NCBI GenBank assembly: GCA_041521345.1
Contig: JBGOHB010000002.1
Strand: one strand, 5' to 3'
Source: Virgibacillus oceani
GTDB lineage: Bacteria; Bacillota; Bacilli; Bacillales; Amphibacillaceae
Length of the DNA: 32,000 bases
Shown one piece after another: positions 20,369-25,982 of the stretch; within the stretch, counting starts at the first letter, position 1, and every line of letters starts with the position of its first letter. The notes beneath the pieces are model-generated. The model searched no databases. It was not told the origin of the DNA and worked only from the letters and a program-made list of their open reading frames with translations. Position numbers and translations under genes: made by a program.

Positions 20369-20758
20369 ATGCGGTATCTTCAAGATGAGGATTCTAAAGT
20401 GTCCGTACGTTTTCTTTTTTTATCCATGGCAATGATCGTCATTGAGCAGGATATAAAGCATGTGGAAGCCGGACCATTCAAAATAAAAGAACCGTATCTG
20501 CAGCTATTGAAAAGCATGATGCAGATCGCTGTTAGTGAACGGAAGCAGTTAAGAAAAATCATGTTGCAGAAAAGCATGCATGTAGTAAGACTGCATAAAA
20601 ATGATTCGTTCTCCACTTTTTTACTTATCTGTGATGGTCATGAGGAAAAAAGGAATTTTTTTAATCCGGCAATACGGATGAAAGTGGAGGAAATTTTACA
20701 GGAGCTTATGGATAAGGCTCTGCTATCATCCCAGCAGTATGTTTCTTCAAATACTTGA
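20369..20758 (+). CDS. hypothetical protein, 129 aa (position corresponds to the B. subtilis yhjD/yhzC neighbourhood)
   Basis: ATG at 20369 follows GGAGGGATGTCGT. The track start at 20279 has no RBS. Its 3' end overlaps the comK remnant convergently by 53 nt. Confidence 0.5.
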   Translation: MRYLQDEDSKVSVRFLFLSMAMIVIEQDIKHVEAGPFKIKEPYLQLLKSMMQIAVSERKQLRKIMLQKSMHVVRLHKNDSFSTFLLICDGHEEKRNFFNPAIRMKVEEILQELMDKALLSSQQYVSSNT

Positions 20759-20963
20759 GCCGGTGATCCAGCGTATAGCGAAATTGAGCCGTTCGCTGTA
20801 TTTGATTTTGAATCGAACCATAAGAAACTTGCAGCAACACCCGCTGGCCATCTTTGAAAATAATTTCCGTACCTTTACCCACTTTATTAACATGTTCAAT
20901 ATGGGAATGACCAATCCATGAGCATGAGGGGTTTCTCGGAGATGTAGTCGGAAAGAAGTACAT
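20706..20963 (-). pseudogene. comK: comK 3' fragment (C-terminal half of the competence transcription factor), truncated by prophage insertion
   Basis: FFPTTSPRNPSCSWIGHSHIEHV...LQVSYGSIQNQIQRTAQFRYTLDHRL aligns to B. subtilis ComK LFPTLSSTRPQCGWISHVHVKEF...LPISYNSFENQVYRTAWLRTKFQDRI (second half of the protein). An in-frame stop lies 8 codons upstream of the ATG (20990-20988). Phage genes follow immediately. Confidence 0.8.
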
Positions 20964-21141
20964 GCTAATTATAACAATGTAATAGACTTATTAATAATAT
21001 AAAACACTGATTTAATAGGGTTTTAGGGAGTGTGCTTCCAGTTGAATAAGTCTATTTTTTTATTGAAAGTGTATCACGAGTTGTATCACAGATAAACAAT
21101 AATAAATATAGAGGAGCCTTGAAGGCTCTTTTTCTTTTGTG

Positions 21142-21169
21142 AAAATAAAAAGCCCTCGGTGTGAGGGCT
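21142..21169 (-). terminator. rho-independent terminator ending the accessory operon
   Basis: Stem AGCCCTC / GAGGGCT starts right after the stop codon and is followed on the minus strand by TTTTTATTTT. Confidence 0.8.
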
Positions 21170-21712
21170 TTACATTTGAGTTATAAAAGTAACTATAATT
21201 GCTGATATTCCTATAATAAAAGCCACTTGTCCCCAAAAGTTAGTTCTTTTCATTGACTCTAAATTTTTAACGGAATCATCAATTTTTTGTTCTGACTTTT
21301 CAAGACTAGCTTTCATTTTCTCATTTTCTTCAACAATTTTATTTTCAAGTTTTTCTATTACTGCAATAAAGCGTTCTTCTCTTTCTTTACTTTCTTTTTG
21401 ATAATTTTTTAAAGATTCATTAAAACGTTCTTCACGATTAATCGTTTCTTCCCTAAGCCTTGTTTCACGTTCTCGTGCATCATCCAGTAAATGCTTTTCT
21501 GTTTCTCTTCTATCGGTATCAACTTTTTCCATATATTTTTCTAATATTTTACTGTCATCCATTTTTTCACCGCCGTTATATTGATGGTTACTAGTTGCTG
21601 CTATTTCATTTATAGGTATAGCATGGTTTAAGTGTGATCTTTTACGTTTACCACCTATAACACCGTCAGACTGTCCAGGAAATTCAATGACTTTGCCCTC
21701 AGAAGCATTCAT
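21170..21712 (-). CDS. C-tail-anchored coiled-coil membrane protein, 180 aa, function unknown
   Basis: ATGA start/stop overlap with the upstream gene; RBS GGAGAGGG. A long charged E/K/R heptad-like region ends in a single C-terminal TM segment (FWGQVAFIIGISAIIVTFITQM). Confidence 0.65.
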   Translation of the reverse strand: MNASEGKVIEFPGQSDGVIGGKRKRSHLNHAIPINEIAATSNHQYNGGEKMDDSKILEKYMEKVDTDRRETEKHLLDDARERETRLREETINREERFNESLKNYQKESKEREERFIAVIEKLENKIVEENEKMKASLEKSEQKIDDSVKNLESMKRTNFWGQVAFIIGISAIIVTFITQM

Positions 21713-22350
21713 TCATTTTCCCTCTCCTCTAACTCACTTTCAAGTGTAATCAGATATTCCTTTAAATCAATAGTTGTCGATTCTAAATCAGAAACAATGG
21801 TTCTAAGGTTAGATATATCTTCGAAACTGACAGCCCCTTCATTTAACATTAATGAAAAATAATACAGAATATCAGATATCATTAAAGAAAAATCTTTCGT
21901 GTCCACAGACATTAAAAATTGATCAGAATCATTTCTTAGTAGGTACATATTAAACATGTTTCTATTCTGATTATGCGTAAAATCCACTTTATCAAAACCC
22001 AAAGGATTAACATTGAATTGTTTGGCTCTCTTAAAATCCAATGAATAATTAAACAATAAATAATTCAAAAAAGTATTTGCTTTTTCGTTTTTAAATATTA
22101 TATCGTCATAGGAATTGTCTTTAATATTTCCTCCCAATGCAAACCAAAATAGAAACATCGAAGCCTCTATTCCCATTATTTTAGGTAAAAATTCATCTCT
22201 CAAATTATAATATGACTTTGGCCATTCAGGACCTTCTATGCAACGATCAATAGTGTTTATTAATAGATGCTTATTAAATTCGTCTGATATGTAATCAATA
22301 AATGAATTGTAACCTTCTATTACTTGGTTGTAATCTAAATCTATTTCCAA
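21709..22350 (-). CDS. hypothetical protein, 213 aa, no recognisable motif
   Basis: Preferred start is TTG at 22350, 7 nt after AAGGAGGG. The track ATG at 22461 has no RBS and overlaps the YolD-like gene. Very AT-rich. Translationally coupled to the downstream gene. Confidence 0.6.
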   Translation of the reverse strand: MEIDLDYNQVIEGYNSFIDYISDEFNKHLLINTIDRCIEGPEWPKSYYNLRDEFLPKIMGIEASMFLFWFALGGNIKDNSYDDIIFKNEKANTFLNYLLFNYSLDFKRAKQFNVNPLGFDKVDFTHNQNRNMFNMYLLRNDSDQFLMSVDTKDFSLMISDILYYFSLMLNEGAVSFEDISNLRTIVSDLESTTIDLKEYLITLESELEERENE

Positions 22351-22441
22351 TATTTCTCCCTCCTTATATTGAATACATTCTACAAATAAGGTCTCTTTTC
22401 CTGCTTTTTTGCAAAATAGATATAACAATTGTAAATTTAAT

Positions 22442-22756
22442 TTAATCCACCATAACATCAATTACATCATTAATGCCAACCTTTGTTCCGTCATCAAAAA
22501 TAATACAGTCATCAGCAACAATACTTTTTAATTTACCTCTCAACATATGGTATTCATAATTGCTGAAAAACTTTACTTCAACAGTAAGACTATCGTGAAT
22601 AGCAAGCTGCAGCTTCATCACATTTTCCTCTATCTGCTGTTCATCCTGGATTGGCTTTTCTTTTTTATCATCTTCTGCCCACATTTCTTTAATCATCTGT
22701 ACATGCTCAGGCAACATGAGCGTAGTCCATTTTATGCTACCCCTGTCATTTGTCAT
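22442..22756 (-). CDS. YolD-like protein
   Basis: RGSIKWTTLMLPEHVQMIKEMW matches the YolD-family signature (R-G-x-I-K-W...MLPEH). RBS AGGAGG. ATGA overlap with the upstream gene. Confidence 0.75.
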   Translation of the reverse strand: MTNDRGSIKWTTLMLPEHVQMIKEMWAEDDKKEKPIQDEQQIEENVMKLQLAIHDSLTVEVKFFSNYEYHMLRGKLKSIVADDCIIFDDGTKVGINDVIDVMVD

Positions 22757-22965
22757 GCTGTAAACCTCCTGCTTGCTTTTTGTAACGACAATATGTTTTC
22801 CATTTTAAAGGTGCGTACCTTCTTCCGATAATAACAATAAGCTAAAATGCTGTTTTCATGCTTATCCAGTACCCGGATAAACCGCTGTGTCAAGTTATTA
22901 TCGTCATCAATATAAATCATTTCCAACACAGTTTTACTACCGACGGCACGGTTTATTAAGTCCAT
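22753..22965 (-). CDS. small WYL-like domain protein, 70 aa
   Basis: VLEMIYIDDDNNLTQRFIRVLDKHENSILAYCYYRKKVRTFKMENILSL follows the WYL-domain pattern (Y-x-d-x-g-x-x-T-x-R-x-I...ayC...R-x-F...I). RBS GAGGTGA. Confidence 0.5.
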   Translation of the reverse strand: MDLINRAVGSKTVLEMIYIDDDNNLTQRFIRVLDKHENSILAYCYYRKKVRTFKMENILSLQKASRRFTA

Positions 22966-22981
22966 AAGATCACCTCAAAAG

Positions 22982-23035
22982 GAAACGTTTGTTCTAATAT
23001 GATACCATAAAAACGAGAACGTGTGTACTGTTGTT
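22982..23035 (-). promoter_or_regulatory. putative SOS-regulated promoter with two LexA (Cheo) boxes
   Basis: On the minus strand: -35 TACACA, 17-nt spacer, extended -10 TGgTATCAT. Box 1 is AGAACAAACGTTTC (22995-22982), just downstream of -10. Box 2 is AGTACACACGTTCT (23029-23016), overlapping -35, with one mismatch to GAAC-N4-GTTC. Confidence 0.55.
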
Positions 23036-23159: not shown

Positions 23160-23303
23160 ATGAGTGATAATTACTGTGAATGCAATTCAATCGCAGGAGT
23201 GTATACTGATAATGTGGATTTTGGATATTGGGAGTACTGCACTGAATGCAATAAAAAGTTAGAAGATGGGTTCCATTATTATGATGAGCCTGAACTATAT
23301 TAA
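23160..23303 (+). CDS. 47-aa CxC...CxxC zinc-ribbon-like microprotein
   Basis: Below the track cutoff. ATG follows TTGGAGGTATTTTT. Translation MSDNYCECNSIAGVYTDNVDFGYWEYCTECNKKLEDGFHYYDEPELY. A terminator follows. Confidence 0.5.
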   Translation: MSDNYCECNSIAGVYTDNVDFGYWEYCTECNKKLEDGFHYYDEPELY

Positions 23304-23392: not shown

Positions 23393-24322
23393 TTATACAA
23401 ATGTCCCTGAATTTAATTGACGTTGCATTTCCCTGACCACCATAGATGGCCTACTTAACACACCATCTACGGTAGTACCCAAGTAAGTCTGTAACAACCT
23501 AATTGTCTGCGGTCCGAGTAAACCATCCACAGTAGCTCCAATTAACTTCTGCAACGCACGAATCACCATACTGCCGCCGCTGTTACTAAAACGTACAGTA
23601 TTGCCGTACATAGCTTCAGTGACAGAGTTTCTACGTTGGTTACTTATGATATCGTCAACAGTTGTACCAAGCGCAACCTGTAACGCTCCTGTTGTAGCAC
23701 CTCCCCACTTGCCATCAACTGTGAGGTTTGCACCTTTTGACTTGCTTGGAGGTTTAGCCTTTCCACCGCCAGAGCCGCCAGACAGCCCCAAATAAACCGC
23801 AATCCCTTTCGCATGTGCCTCAGCAATCTTTCTCAGGTTGCTATCACTCTTTAAAAAATCTGCATCCTGTGAATTGTCGATAAAGCCGTTTTCCGTTAGT
23901 ACTGCCGGCATACTGGACTGTCTCAATACTGCAAAGTTAGCCTGTTTTTTACCACGGTTGTTTCTAAACAGCGGAGCCAATTCTGCATGTAATGCATCTT
24001 GCAATTTTCCAGCTTCGGAATTTCTGCTTAATTGATTATAAATATAATCCTCATACCCATAGGCAGATCCGTTAAAAGCATTAATGTGGATAGATACAAA
24101 GATATCTGCTCCCCAGCTGTTTGCATCATTTGTACGATCTGTTAGCGATGGGAAACTGTCATCATTACGAGACATTCTCACAGATACACCACTATAATCA
24201 TTCTGCAAATAGTTCCTTGTATAACGTGCGATTTTTAGCACCACATCTTTTTCCTTTAATCCATTACCCGCAGCACCCGGATCACTGCCACCATGACCTG
24301 GATCTAAATATACTTTAGACAT
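23393..24322 (-). CDS. N-acetylmuramoyl-L-alanine amidase endolysin (Amidase_3 plus peptidoglycan-binding repeats)
   Basis: MSKVYLDPGHGGSDPGA...SIHINA matches the amidase_3 core. The C-terminus has three VDG-x-x-G-x-x-T...LQ repeats (PG_binding_1-like). Confidence 0.95.
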   Translation of the reverse strand: MSKVYLDPGHGGSDPGAAGNGLKEKDVVLKIARYTRNYLQNDYSGVSVRMSRNDDSFPSLTDRTNDANSWGADIFVSIHINAFNGSAYGYEDYIYNQLSRNSEAGKLQDALHAELAPLFRNNRGKKQANFAVLRQSSMPAVLTENGFIDNSQDADFLKSDSNLRKIAEAHAKGIAVYLGLSGGSGGGKAKPPSKSKGANLTVDGKWGGATTGALQVALGTTVDDIISNQRRNSVTEAMYGNTVRFSNSGGSMVIRALQKLIGATVDGLLGPQTIRLLQTYLGTTVDGVLSRPSMVVREMQRQLNSGTFV

Positions 24323-24573
24323 TATTTAGCCTCCTTTTCTCCATTTAAATACTGCTGAGCCCTTTTAGCTTCAGCCGTCCAGTTATTGTTTTTCCAGTGA
24401 TTCCAAATCTCTGTACCCGCCAATGCAATAACAGATATACCTGCTACAATAGTCTCGTTGTCAAAAGGAAGTAGTTCATATCCAAACATTAGAGCTCCAG
24501 CATTAGCAAATACAACTGCCATAGCTACCAGACGGATCCATTTGTTATCAATTTTTTTAAGTTGTTTTCTCAT
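24322..24573 (-). CDS. holin (SPP1/XhlB-type)
   Basis: 83 aa with two TM segments and the HWKNNNWT motif typical of this holin family, followed by a charged tail. TAATG junction with the amidase gene. Confidence 0.8.
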   Translation of the reverse strand: MRKQLKKIDNKWIRLVAMAVVFANAGALMFGYELLPFDNETIVAGISVIALAGTEIWNHWKNNNWTAEAKRAQQYLNGEKEAK

Positions 24574-24878
24574 CTCTGATCACCCCCTTTATCTAAATTA
24601 TCCAATCGCTTATGAGCTTGTTTGGACGATTCCTCAACCCTAGTTAAACGTTCGCCTAATGCACCTATTCGCTTTTCGTTCGCCCTTAGATCAATCCGGA
24701 TATCATCAACACCTTTACGGATATAATCAAGACCAGCCTTTACTTCTGCACTTTCTTTTGTATCGTTTTTGGTGGATGTGCTTTTTTTAGATTGATAGGT
24801 TAAATAAGCGATAAGAACACCAATAACGGCAATAAAAAAAGATCCAATTGAAATCAATATTCCTAGTTCGACACTCAT
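24570..24878 (-). CDS. lysis-cassette membrane protein (N-terminal TM plus coiled coil), in the XhlA position
   Basis: 102 aa. TM segment GILISIGSFFIAVIGVLIAYL, then a coiled coil. 4-nt overlap with the holin start. Confidence 0.6.
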   Translation of the reverse strand: MSVELGILISIGSFFIAVIGVLIAYLTYQSKKSTSTKNDTKESAEVKAGLDYIRKGVDDIRIDLRANEKRIGALGERLTRVEESSKQAHKRLDNLDKGGDQR

Positions 24879-24968: not shown

Positions 24969-25487
24969 CTACAATACTTTTATTACTTTAGCTTTACCTG
25001 TAAACAAGTACTCTACTTTTTTATTATCTAACACATGTCCTCCCCAGTATTTATTGGCATTCTCCCTAACTTTTGATAGAGGAATCGGATTTCCTTCAAC
25101 AAAAGTTGCGTCACACTTAAACACTACCCCAGTTAATGACAATTCAAGAAGTTGCACTTTATTATGCTCAAAATGCATTTTCCAGTCTTTCATACTTTCA
25201 TAATCTCCAACCCAAAGAGAAGTAAATCTTGACGGTAAGTTTTCATTAATGTTTTTTCTCTCCTCTTCAAAAATTGTCTCTCTAGCATAGTGCCAGTAAA
25301 AAGTAACTGCGCTTATTAGGGCTTGTTTATTATTTATAACATTCGGTACTTGGTTTTCATATGAAGACATAAATGGATTGATTGTTTTGCCTATGTTTAA
25401 AATATCACCCTCAGATAATAAGTTATATGGATTTTGATTACTTGTTGAATTACAATGATAAAAAATTTCATTTACTACTTCTTTCAT
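24969..25487 (-). CDS. hypothetical protein, 172 aa (accessory gene between the tail-fibre and lysis modules)
   Basis: ATG at 25487 follows AGGAGGGGATTTTT. AT-rich. Has its own terminator. Confidence 0.6.
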   Translation of the reverse strand: MKEVVNEIFYHCNSTSNQNPYNLLSEGDILNIGKTINPFMSSYENQVPNVINNKQALISAVTFYWHYARETIFEEERKNINENLPSRFTSLWVGDYESMKDWKMHFEHNKVQLLELSLTGVVFKCDATFVEGNPIPLSKVRENANKYWGGHVLDNKKVEYLFTGKAKVIKVL

Positions 25488-25562
25488 AAAAATCCCCTCC
25501 TGCCTAATTATTTCTACAGGGTGGGGCAAAAGTCCTTCTTTTTTCACACATAAAAATAACGC

Positions 25563-25982
25563 CTATTCAGCGTTAACCTCTTCTATAAATATTTCTTCTG
25601 CCATTTCTTCCAGTCTTTCCATAGCCTTGTTTTCTTCATATTCTTTATCACTTAATTCAAAATTCCCATTGAAACTGACAGTCCGATTATCATTCCTTGT
25701 AGTGTACGATATTTGCACACTCACTACTTCATCATCTGAGTATCTTGTATTAATACTTCTAACCTCAAAATTCAAATTAGGGACTTCATCAAGCAAATGC
25801 TGTTTTGCCATTTGTTCCAAGGTGGCAATTGATTCATTTCCTTCATATTCATCTGCAGACAAGTTAAAATTTCCATTTCCATTAACAGATCGGCTTTCAG
25901 TATTTGCTTTATACGATACCTGAACATTGTCTATTTGGCTTTCTTTGTATCTGGTGTTGATGCTTCTGACTTCGAATTGCAT
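25563..25982 (-). CDS. hypothetical protein, 139 aa, made of two tandem ~68-aa repeats
   Basis: ATG at 25982 follows AAAGGAGG plus 9 nt. Both halves begin FEVRSINTRY and align throughout. Confidence 0.65.
   Translation of the reverse strand: MQFEVRSINTRYKESQIDNVQVSYKANTESRSVNGNGNFNLSADEYEGNESIATLEQMAKQHLLDEVPNLNFEVRSINTRYSDDEVVSVQISYTTRNDNRTVSFNGNFELSDKEYEENKAMERLEEMAEEIFIEEVNAE

Follow-up and report, generated by a model that had tools for sequence, protein, structure and literature searches.

A pair of overlapping genes, here called A and B, stands at one end of a prophage in the window, that is, the whole stretch of 32,000 nucleotides (nt) from Virgibacillus oceani (contig JBGOHB010000002.1) that was analysed. 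For the soluble protein encoded by gene A we claim with good confidence the fold of the chlamydial proteins CT584 and Cpn0803, and probably also their ancestry. Gene B encodes a helical protein predicted to be anchored in the membrane by its C-terminal end. The pair is most likely an autonomous unit of temperate Bacillota phages, an accessory ('moron' or lysogenic-conversion) cassette. As its function we favour exclusion or abortive infection, expressed in the lysogen and acting at the membrane, at a probability of roughly 0.4.

Taken alone, A gave nothing significant in scans against Pfam, PHROG, PADLOC and NCBIfam, and its family is rare. A word-indexed search returned two relatives only (76% and 47% identity) and an alignment-based word-index search recovered 5 proteins only, while a profile searched exhaustively against 1.84 billion representatives yielded 32 clusters, nearly all with members of about 170–235 amino acids (aa). 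The named relatives belong to the Bacillota: Niallia circulans, Bacillus vallismortis, Cytobacillus, Ureibacillus and a partial Streptococcus sequence. From this family a profile of 31 sequences was derived and compared with the sequences of the PDB, where it matched 3Q9D (Cpn0803, expectation value (E) 1.2e-4) and 4MLK (CT584, E 3.8e-4); the alignments extend over about 135 residues, including a strand with the motif R-x-D-G. After addition of four relatives, three of them more divergent clostridial short forms, the profile of 35 sequences matched 3q9d at E 3e-5 and 4mlk at E 5.5e-5, with the next match at E 0.14. The two chlamydial proteins are the only PDB-sequence matches below E 0.01. An AlphaFold2 model of A was built on the 31-sequence alignment (predicted local distance difference test, pLDDT, 93.5; predicted template-modelling score, pTM, 0.79) and replaced an earlier poor model from 3 sequences (pLDDT 58.6). 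When this model was compared with the PDB by Foldseek, the entries 3q9d_A, 3q9d_B and 4mlk came out on top (E 3e-4 to 3e-3), followed by COMMD7 (E 0.019). Since the independent profile and structure searches converge on the same target, A is assigned to the CT584/Cpn0803 fold. The original prediction had recognised no family in A, which these matches (E 3e-5 by profile, E 3e-4 by Foldseek) correct.

In the model, an all-helical N-terminal domain is followed by a domain of three beta strands (residues 119–150), a helix (151–170) and a long C-terminal helix (179–212). The family alignment shows the motifs WPxxYYxLRDxxLPxxxG, AKxxNxNPLG and RNDG. Its conserved columns include W43, P44, R51, P56 and G60, and P56, P116, R139 and D141 are invariant. 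The protein of the window carries NPLG and RNDS, the latter at the place of RNDG in most relatives, and has a net charge of about -20. CT584 and Cpn0803 (PF17435; 4MLK, 3Q9D) show the same succession of helical N-domain, three-stranded sheet and further helices. They also share the strand motif R-x-D-G-(E/Q), which reads RVDGQEFLL in CT584 and RVDGQEF, identical to the chlamydial sequence, in the relative from locus L030. The sequences themselves have diverged to about 16–18% identity, and no single member of the A family reaches the Pfam model: 0 out of 31 match PF17435 (CT_584-like) at E <= 0.1, whereas a CT584-family fragment itself scores E 1.8e-76.

Owing to this fold, A can be placed in the wider COMMD-like structural class (PMC6089597; PMC13392464). 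In PMC6089597 and PMC13392464 the CT584 family is described as restricted to Chlamydiales and tied to type III secretion; the A family, in contrast, belongs to phages of Bacillota and comes with a tail-anchored partner. CT584/Cpn0803 forms a hexamer, a trimer of dimers, and has type III secretion components and lipids as binding partners (PMC3260263), among which acidic lipids are named for Cpn0803 (PMC3260263; PMC13392464). The lipids bound by Cpn0803 include phosphatidic acid and phosphatidylinositol. Those relatives of A whose structures have been solved are obligate dimers and assemble into hexamers or rings (PMC3260263; PMC13392464), and for COMMD-like proteins a homo-oligomeric ring of 8–10 subunits built from COMM-domain dimers is described by Liu et al. 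2026 (PMC13392464). With the eukaryotic COMMD proteins the modelled A appears to share the two-domain architecture of an HN and a COMM-like domain, which CT584 and Cpn0803 also possess, but there is no sequence-level match, and A has an extra C-terminal helix, as CT584 has. The eukaryotic COMMD ring is held by the coiled-coil partners CCDC22/93. By analogy, the obligately linked helical partner gene B may be compared with these coiled coils.

Protein B possesses a single hydrophobic segment, residues 158–180, at its C-terminus, just as the original prediction had it, and one membrane segment at the end of the protein is found in all B-type relatives, too. There is no signal peptide, and the architecture is that of a tail-anchored protein. 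Because K155-R156 precedes the membrane segment, the N-terminus, and with it nearly the whole protein, is predicted to be cytoplasmic. Residues 51–157 form a stretch of 107 aa without any proline or glycine, and 38% of the whole protein is charged. The coiled coil postulated for this region could not be demonstrated, because its heptad signal is no better than that of shuffled sequence (maximal a/d enrichment 0.60, equalled by 98 out of 500 shuffles); the region may just as well be a single ER/K-type helix. A basic patch is found in the N-terminal region, together with the motif h-h-x-F-P, which is kept in B-type proteins whatever the upstream partner is (KVIEFP, RVFRFP, RILRFP, LIKFP, IIPFP). 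The most conserved element lies at the start of the long helix and reads GGxxMDxxK(I/L)LEKYxDK(V/I)DxDRR in the alignment. A third shared element, K-W-h-h-G, precedes the membrane segment. Two B-type proteins, from Ureibacillus (L002, 2755-3315) and B. vallismortis (L033, 9617-10123), carry, in place of the LEKY...DRR region and ahead of the anchor, a unit of about 15 aa, h-P-(S/T)-K-(D/H)-E, repeated three times in tandem. BLASTP detected no pairwise similarity between B of the window and its Ureibacillus counterpart, and their kinship becomes visible only in the multiple alignment. A profile of B met generic helical proteins only in the PDB, and nothing significant was found in the Pfam, PHROG, PADLOC and NCBIfam scans.

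Both reading frames are real genes under purifying selection, since the ratio of nonsynonymous to synonymous substitution rates (dN/dS), calculated against the 76%-identical pair of locus L007, amounts to 0.12 (A) and 0.32 (B). The same two proteins are called in the NCBI annotation of Virgibacillus oceani, and the homologues begin at the same residues as called in the window. Their translational coupling, one of the features proposed from the sequence, is borne out by the ATGA overlap and by the position of the ribosome-binding site (RBS) of B inside A. The 91-nt spacer, the RBS and the TTG start of A were likewise found as claimed. So was the strong terminator, a hairpin of 9 pairs with a T-run, which covers the final 2 nt (21171-21170) of the stop codon of B. 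The pair also is as AT-rich as stated, with a G+C content of 27–32% over positions 21001-22500 versus 39–46% in the tail genes.

Failure of the two genes to co-occur in other prophages had been named beforehand as a refutation. A B-type gene was found directly after the A-type gene in 14 out of 14 loci for which sequence downstream of the A-type gene exists: the window, Ureibacillus L001-6, L007, L016, L018, L019, L020, L021, L023, L025, L026, L030, phage phiMMP02 (gp35/gp36) and B. vallismortis (L033). The partner has 109–188 aa with a single membrane segment at the extreme C-terminus, and usually the two genes overlap by 4–23 nt or are separated by a gap of at most 67 nt. L017 encodes the same A protein (P0037) as L018; here the gene caller took an internal start, giving a partner of 128 aa located 227 nt downstream. 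The B-type gene of L023 (6638-7078) was also called from an internal ATG (109 aa). Judged by the conserved N-terminal motif RILRFPQD, its true start, which gives about 146 aa, overlaps the end of the A-type gene.

B-type genes occur furthermore behind unrelated first genes, namely a DUF6941/phrog_5881 gene in L009-12 and a gene for a 225-aa protein without family, adjoining terminase genes, in L028. Therefore B looks like the constant element. BLASTP gave no pairwise similarity between A and the DUF6941 partner. The coupled arrangements are located at 2127-3120 in L009, after the holin-amidase genes, and at 2468-3656 in L028.

In clostridial phages the short form of A corresponds to phrog_9125 (E 7e-36) and the B-type protein to phrog_9105, both annotated as 'unknown function'. 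The pair of phiMMP02 follows the amidase gene in the same order as in the window, but the short form lacks the last helix, and the proteins of the window match neither PHROG. Among 50,697 phage genomes, blastn with the region and tblastn with A, B and the long forms P0022 and P0034 gave no match; sequenced phages were matched by the clostridial short form only. No match was found in the viral structure library BFVD, and pattern scans of public contigs led to one already known locus in genomes and to nothing in metagenomes.

Directly beyond the pair follows the 3' part of comK, with the junction at about 20964-21148 and only the 3' third of the gene inside the window; comK is therefore interrupted by the prophage, whose last cargo is the pair. 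The gene comK is the integration target of Listeria phages of the A118/phi10403S type; here it is used in a Virgibacillus. The TerI system of the Listeria comK prophages was considered as a relative and rejected, as it is an unrelated small protein at a different locus. With the endolysin gene upstream and the comK fragment beyond, the proposed cargo site between lysis genes and attachment site is confirmed. A similar position, directly after the lysis genes or between these and the integrase gene, is found in most loci. The pair is lysis-adjacent in the window, L001-6, L013, L019, L020, L021, L023, L025, L026 and phiMMP02, and this holds for the C. difficile myoviruses phiMMP01, phiMMP02, phiMMP03, phiCD505, CDKM15 and phiCD418. 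For C. difficile phages the same region has been reported to be a lysogenic conversion module of cassette type (PMC4009436). In L007, L016, L020, L021, L023 and L033 a terminator, followed by promoter-like sequence, stands ahead of the pair. In Ureibacillus the pair is convergent with the endolysin gene, in L013 an LXG toxin module on the opposite strand stands between it and the lysis genes, and in B. vallismortis it is located in a prophage-remnant island next to manR. The own terminators, the promoter-like sequences and the inversion in relatives fit an expression independent of the late operon.

Other cargo was noticed in the vicinity of the cassette. LXG toxins (Ntox50; Tox-HNH-EHHH) with their immunity genes adjoin the pair in the unrelated loci L013 (5769-7644) and L033 (3798-5785), that is, type VII secretion cargo sits in the same prophage-end hotspot. 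A TIR-domain protein and a Mom-like gene are found in L017 (920-3014), a Tad2-like (anti-Thoeris) gene inside the lysis cassette of L021 (2416-2712), and a 772-aa protein with weak AAA/TrwB-like matches in L001 (2266-4584).

The ranking of possible functions rests on the position, the autonomy and the neighbours of the pair. If it serves exclusion or abortive infection, the acidic A would oligomerise, as its relatives with solved structures do, and the equimolar, co-translated B would tether it to the inner side of the membrane. The long helix of B would act as a spacer, with the N-terminal peptide of B available for binding another factor. A promoter of its own would drive production of the complex in the lysogen, in the window perhaps along with SOS-type read-through, and the complex would act at the membrane on incoming or induced phage, either by blocking a step after DNA entry or by causing premature failure of the membrane or the holin. 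B would be the constant membrane component and the soluble partner exchangeable (A-type, DUF6941 or the 225-aa protein), which fits the B-type genes behind unrelated first genes. Two-gene exclusion systems expressed from prophages in the lysogen are RexA/RexB of phage lambda and gp30/gp31 of mycobacteriophage Butters. By analogy, A and B may be likened to these pairs of a soluble and a membrane protein, prophage-borne and in cargo position. There is, however, no relationship in sequence or fold, and B, with its tail anchor, differs from RexB and gp31, which span the membrane several times. The most specific version of this idea, in which a CT584/COMMD-like oligomer and its obligate membrane-anchored partner constitute an undescribed two-gene anti-phage system with exchangeable soluble partners, appears doubtful.

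Several observations weigh against an exclusion function or against the structural assignment behind it. Pfam, NCBIfam, PHROGs and PADLOC provide no functional match, and no defence, lysis or toxin family was recognised; PADLOC, consulted on the suspicion of a defence system, returned none for A and for B at best a low-complexity helical match at E 0.056. Several loci have the pair no more than 130–300 nt after the endolysin gene on the same strand, and the tail of B weakly resembles XhlA. B is almost wholly cytoplasmic, so it would not block adsorption from outside. In the window no terminator intervenes between the YolD-like gene and A. Finally, the Foldseek template-modelling scores of A to CT584 are low (0.33–0.44), and hhalign of the A family with a single CT584 fragment arrives at a probability of 39% (E 3e-4).

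The proximity of the endolysin gene and the XhlA-like tail of B are the reasons to keep a lysis function as a rival, which we regard as rather unlikely: B would be an extended XhlA-type holin helper, an antiholin or a timer, and A would modulate it. The pair stands immediately downstream of holin and endolysin genes in most loci, and B-type tails repeatedly match Pfam XhlA (PF10779) below threshold (window B, residues 119–173, E 0.008, 16.8 bits; L027, E 1e-3; L030, E 2.8e-5, over model positions 8–64 of 67). XhlA of PBSX-type lysis cassettes resembles the C-terminus of B in its helix, in K-W-h-h-G and in the one membrane segment at the end, and it is likewise encoded near holin and endolysin genes. 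However, the best B-type relative reaches 24.7 bits against a gathering score of 34.7 bits, and when the B-type alignment is set against one of true XhlA proteins by hhalign, the probability is 29%, with 16 columns aligned around the K-W..G membrane segment. At twice the length of XhlA, B has two additional conserved motifs. Moreover, XhlA is located upstream of the holin, whereas B follows the endolysin and coexists with genuine XhlA: a true XhlA or XhlA-like gene already precedes the holin in L021, L023 and phiMMP02, and in Ureibacillus L002 a true XhlA gene lies upstream of the holin while the pair is convergent to the endolysin. All XhlA scores are below the gathering threshold. An identity of B with XhlA is not established. 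A part in lysis also is hard to reconcile with the terminator between pair and lysis genes in L020, L021 and L023, with the inverted orientation of the pair against the lysis genes in Ureibacillus, with the B. vallismortis prophage-remnant island, which has no lysis genes, with L028, where the B-type gene is next to terminase genes, and with an AT content far above that of the lysis genes.

An unlikely alternative places the pair outside phage-phage conflict, as a lysogenic conversion in which a membrane-tethered scaffold alters secretion, an SOS/YolD-linked damage response or the envelope of the host. The binding of type III secretion components and lipids by CT584/Cpn0803 (PMC3260263) is in line with this, as is the clustering of myxococcal COMMD-like genes with type VI-like genes (PMC13392464). 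LXG modules are neighbours of the pair in L013 and L033, and YolD-like genes adjoin it in the window and in B. vallismortis, but in Bacilli LXG and YolD genes are often carried at prophage ends, and most loci with the pair lack them, and no secretion component is consistently linked. A toxin-antitoxin-like addiction module, in which B would damage the membrane, the acidic co-translated A would neutralise it and prophage or cargo would be stabilised, is quite improbable: gene order and ATGA coupling are as in antitoxin-toxin operons, B is a small single-pass membrane protein with a basic N-terminal patch opposite a strongly acidic A, and the first gene is exchangeable, but A, with about 200 aa, a conserved two-domain fold and no DNA-binding domain for autoregulation, is unlike known antitoxins, no toxin family was matched in the library scans, and a simple membrane toxin would not need the long conserved cytoplasmic part of B.

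Both gene families are already present in databases as hypothetical proteins and as PHROGs of unknown function. New in the literature searched appear to be the recognition of the first protein as CT584/COMMD-like and, relative to the main text of PMC13392464, the occurrence of this fold in Bacillota phages and its constant association with a tail-anchored helical partner. The 2026 survey of COMMD-like proteins reports no predicted partner for any prokaryotic member (PMC13392464), and its main text names neither phages nor Bacillota but says 'amongst others' (PMC13392464). A fold is assigned here to a conserved 'hypothetical' gene pair of the lysogenic-conversion module of C. difficile phages. 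Tractable hosts, Bacillus vallismortis of the B. subtilis group and C. difficile phages of the phiMMP02 type, would give access to the genetics of the CT584/COMMD-like fold. If the pair is an exclusion system, it would add a new membrane-acting type with a modular build. As an oligomer with an obligately linked, membrane-anchored partner, A would be the first COMMD-type protein of a prokaryote or virus for which a partner is defined, a loose parallel to the COMMD ring and CCDC22/93.

Table 1. Features of the gene pair and its surroundings in the window (positions count from the first letter of the window).
Feature	Position	Strand	Description	Basis
Gene A	22350-21709	minus	TTG start, 213 aa, acidic (isoelectric point 4.3), soluble	open reading frame (ORF) and RBS
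RBS of A	22365-22358	minus	AAGGAGGG, 7 nt 5' of TTG	sequence
A residues 1-115	22006-22350	minus	all-helical N-terminal domain (HN-like), WPxxYYxLRDxxLPxxxG	AlphaFold2, helices 7-114
A residues 116-213	21712-22005	minus	COMM/CT584-like C-terminal domain	AlphaFold2, Foldseek
A/B stop/start overlap	21712-21709	minus	ATGA; ATG 21712-21710, TGA 21711-21709
RBS (Shine-Dalgarno) of B	21729-21720	minus	GAGGAGAGGG, inside A
Gene B	21712-21170	minus	ATG start, 180 aa, predicted tail-anchored charged helical membrane protein
B residues 7-21	21650-21694	minus	KVIEFPGQSDGVIGG, N-terminal h-h-x-F-P motif	alignments; L023, L025, L028 sequences
B residues 51-75	21488-21562	minus	MDDSKILEKYMEKVDTDRRETEKHL, most conserved B motif, start of long helix
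B residues 158-180	21173-21241	minus	single C-terminal membrane segment (tail anchor)	Kyte-Doolittle mean 2.14
Intrinsic terminator of the pair	21171-21149	minus	9 pairs and T-run
Second hairpin	21110-21132		terminator-like on both strands, between pair and comK fragment
comK 3' fragment (host)	20706-20963	minus		Pfam ComK positions 82-151 of 152, E 2e-22
Candidate own promoter region of A	22377-22404	minus	GCAGGAAAAGAGACC, then TTTGTAGAAT	inference only
YolD-like gene	22442-22756	minus	104 aa	Pfam YolD E 2e-17
WYL-like gene	22753-22965	minus	70 aa	Pfam WYL E 6e-4; PADLOC WYL E 1e-7
Promoter-like TACACA-17-TGgTATCAT with two LexA-type boxes	22982-23028	minus	upstream of WYL-like/YolD-like genes; LexA-box promoter at 22999-23027
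amidase_3 endolysin	23393-24322	minus	upstream of pair
Holin-sized ORF	24322-24573	minus	83 aa	size

Upstream of A, an extended -10 element had been proposed at 22384-22377. The sequence TGTAGAAT does occur there, but without the spacer base of the canonical TGnTATAAT and without a -35 element. The candidate promoter region of which it would be part was not listed in a promoter scan of the window. It is partly kept 5' of A in L007, L016 and L020. The element GCAGGAAAAGAGACC or a similar one is located at 22390-22404 in the window, at about 254-268 in L007 and at about 288-301 in L016; the proteins of these three loci are only 49–76% identical. The element may be a regulatory site.

The promoter-like sequence farther upstream is bracketed by the LexA-type boxes GTACACACGTTC and AGAACAAACGTTTC, the latter of which agrees at 13 out of 14 positions with CGAACRNRYGTTYC, which we take to be the LexA consensus of B. 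subtilis. The unit of WYL-like and YolD-like genes is likely to be under SOS control. Because no terminator was found in the 91-nt spacer between the YolD-like gene and A (22441-22351), an SOS-controlled read-through from this promoter into the pair is possible. For the window, the proposal that the pair may be expressed independently of SOS has to be qualified by this possible read-through.

Some further genes between the tail region and the pair deserve mention. A protein of 102 aa encoded before the holin (24570-24878, minus strand) combines an N-terminal membrane segment with a charged helix and matches Pfam XhlA at E 0.16 only. Related phages carry XhlA in this slot, whose membrane segment is C-terminal, unlike that of the 102-aa protein. 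Between the endolysin and the WYL-like gene, a terminator at about 23343-23316 that belongs to the endolysin precedes a Cys-rich, zinc-ribbon-like ORF of 47 aa on the plus strand (23160-23303). Finally, a DUF2441 protein (24969-25547, E 6e-13) and a 139-aa protein with weak lectin-like matches (25563-25982), both on the minus strand, are encoded between the tail and lysis genes.

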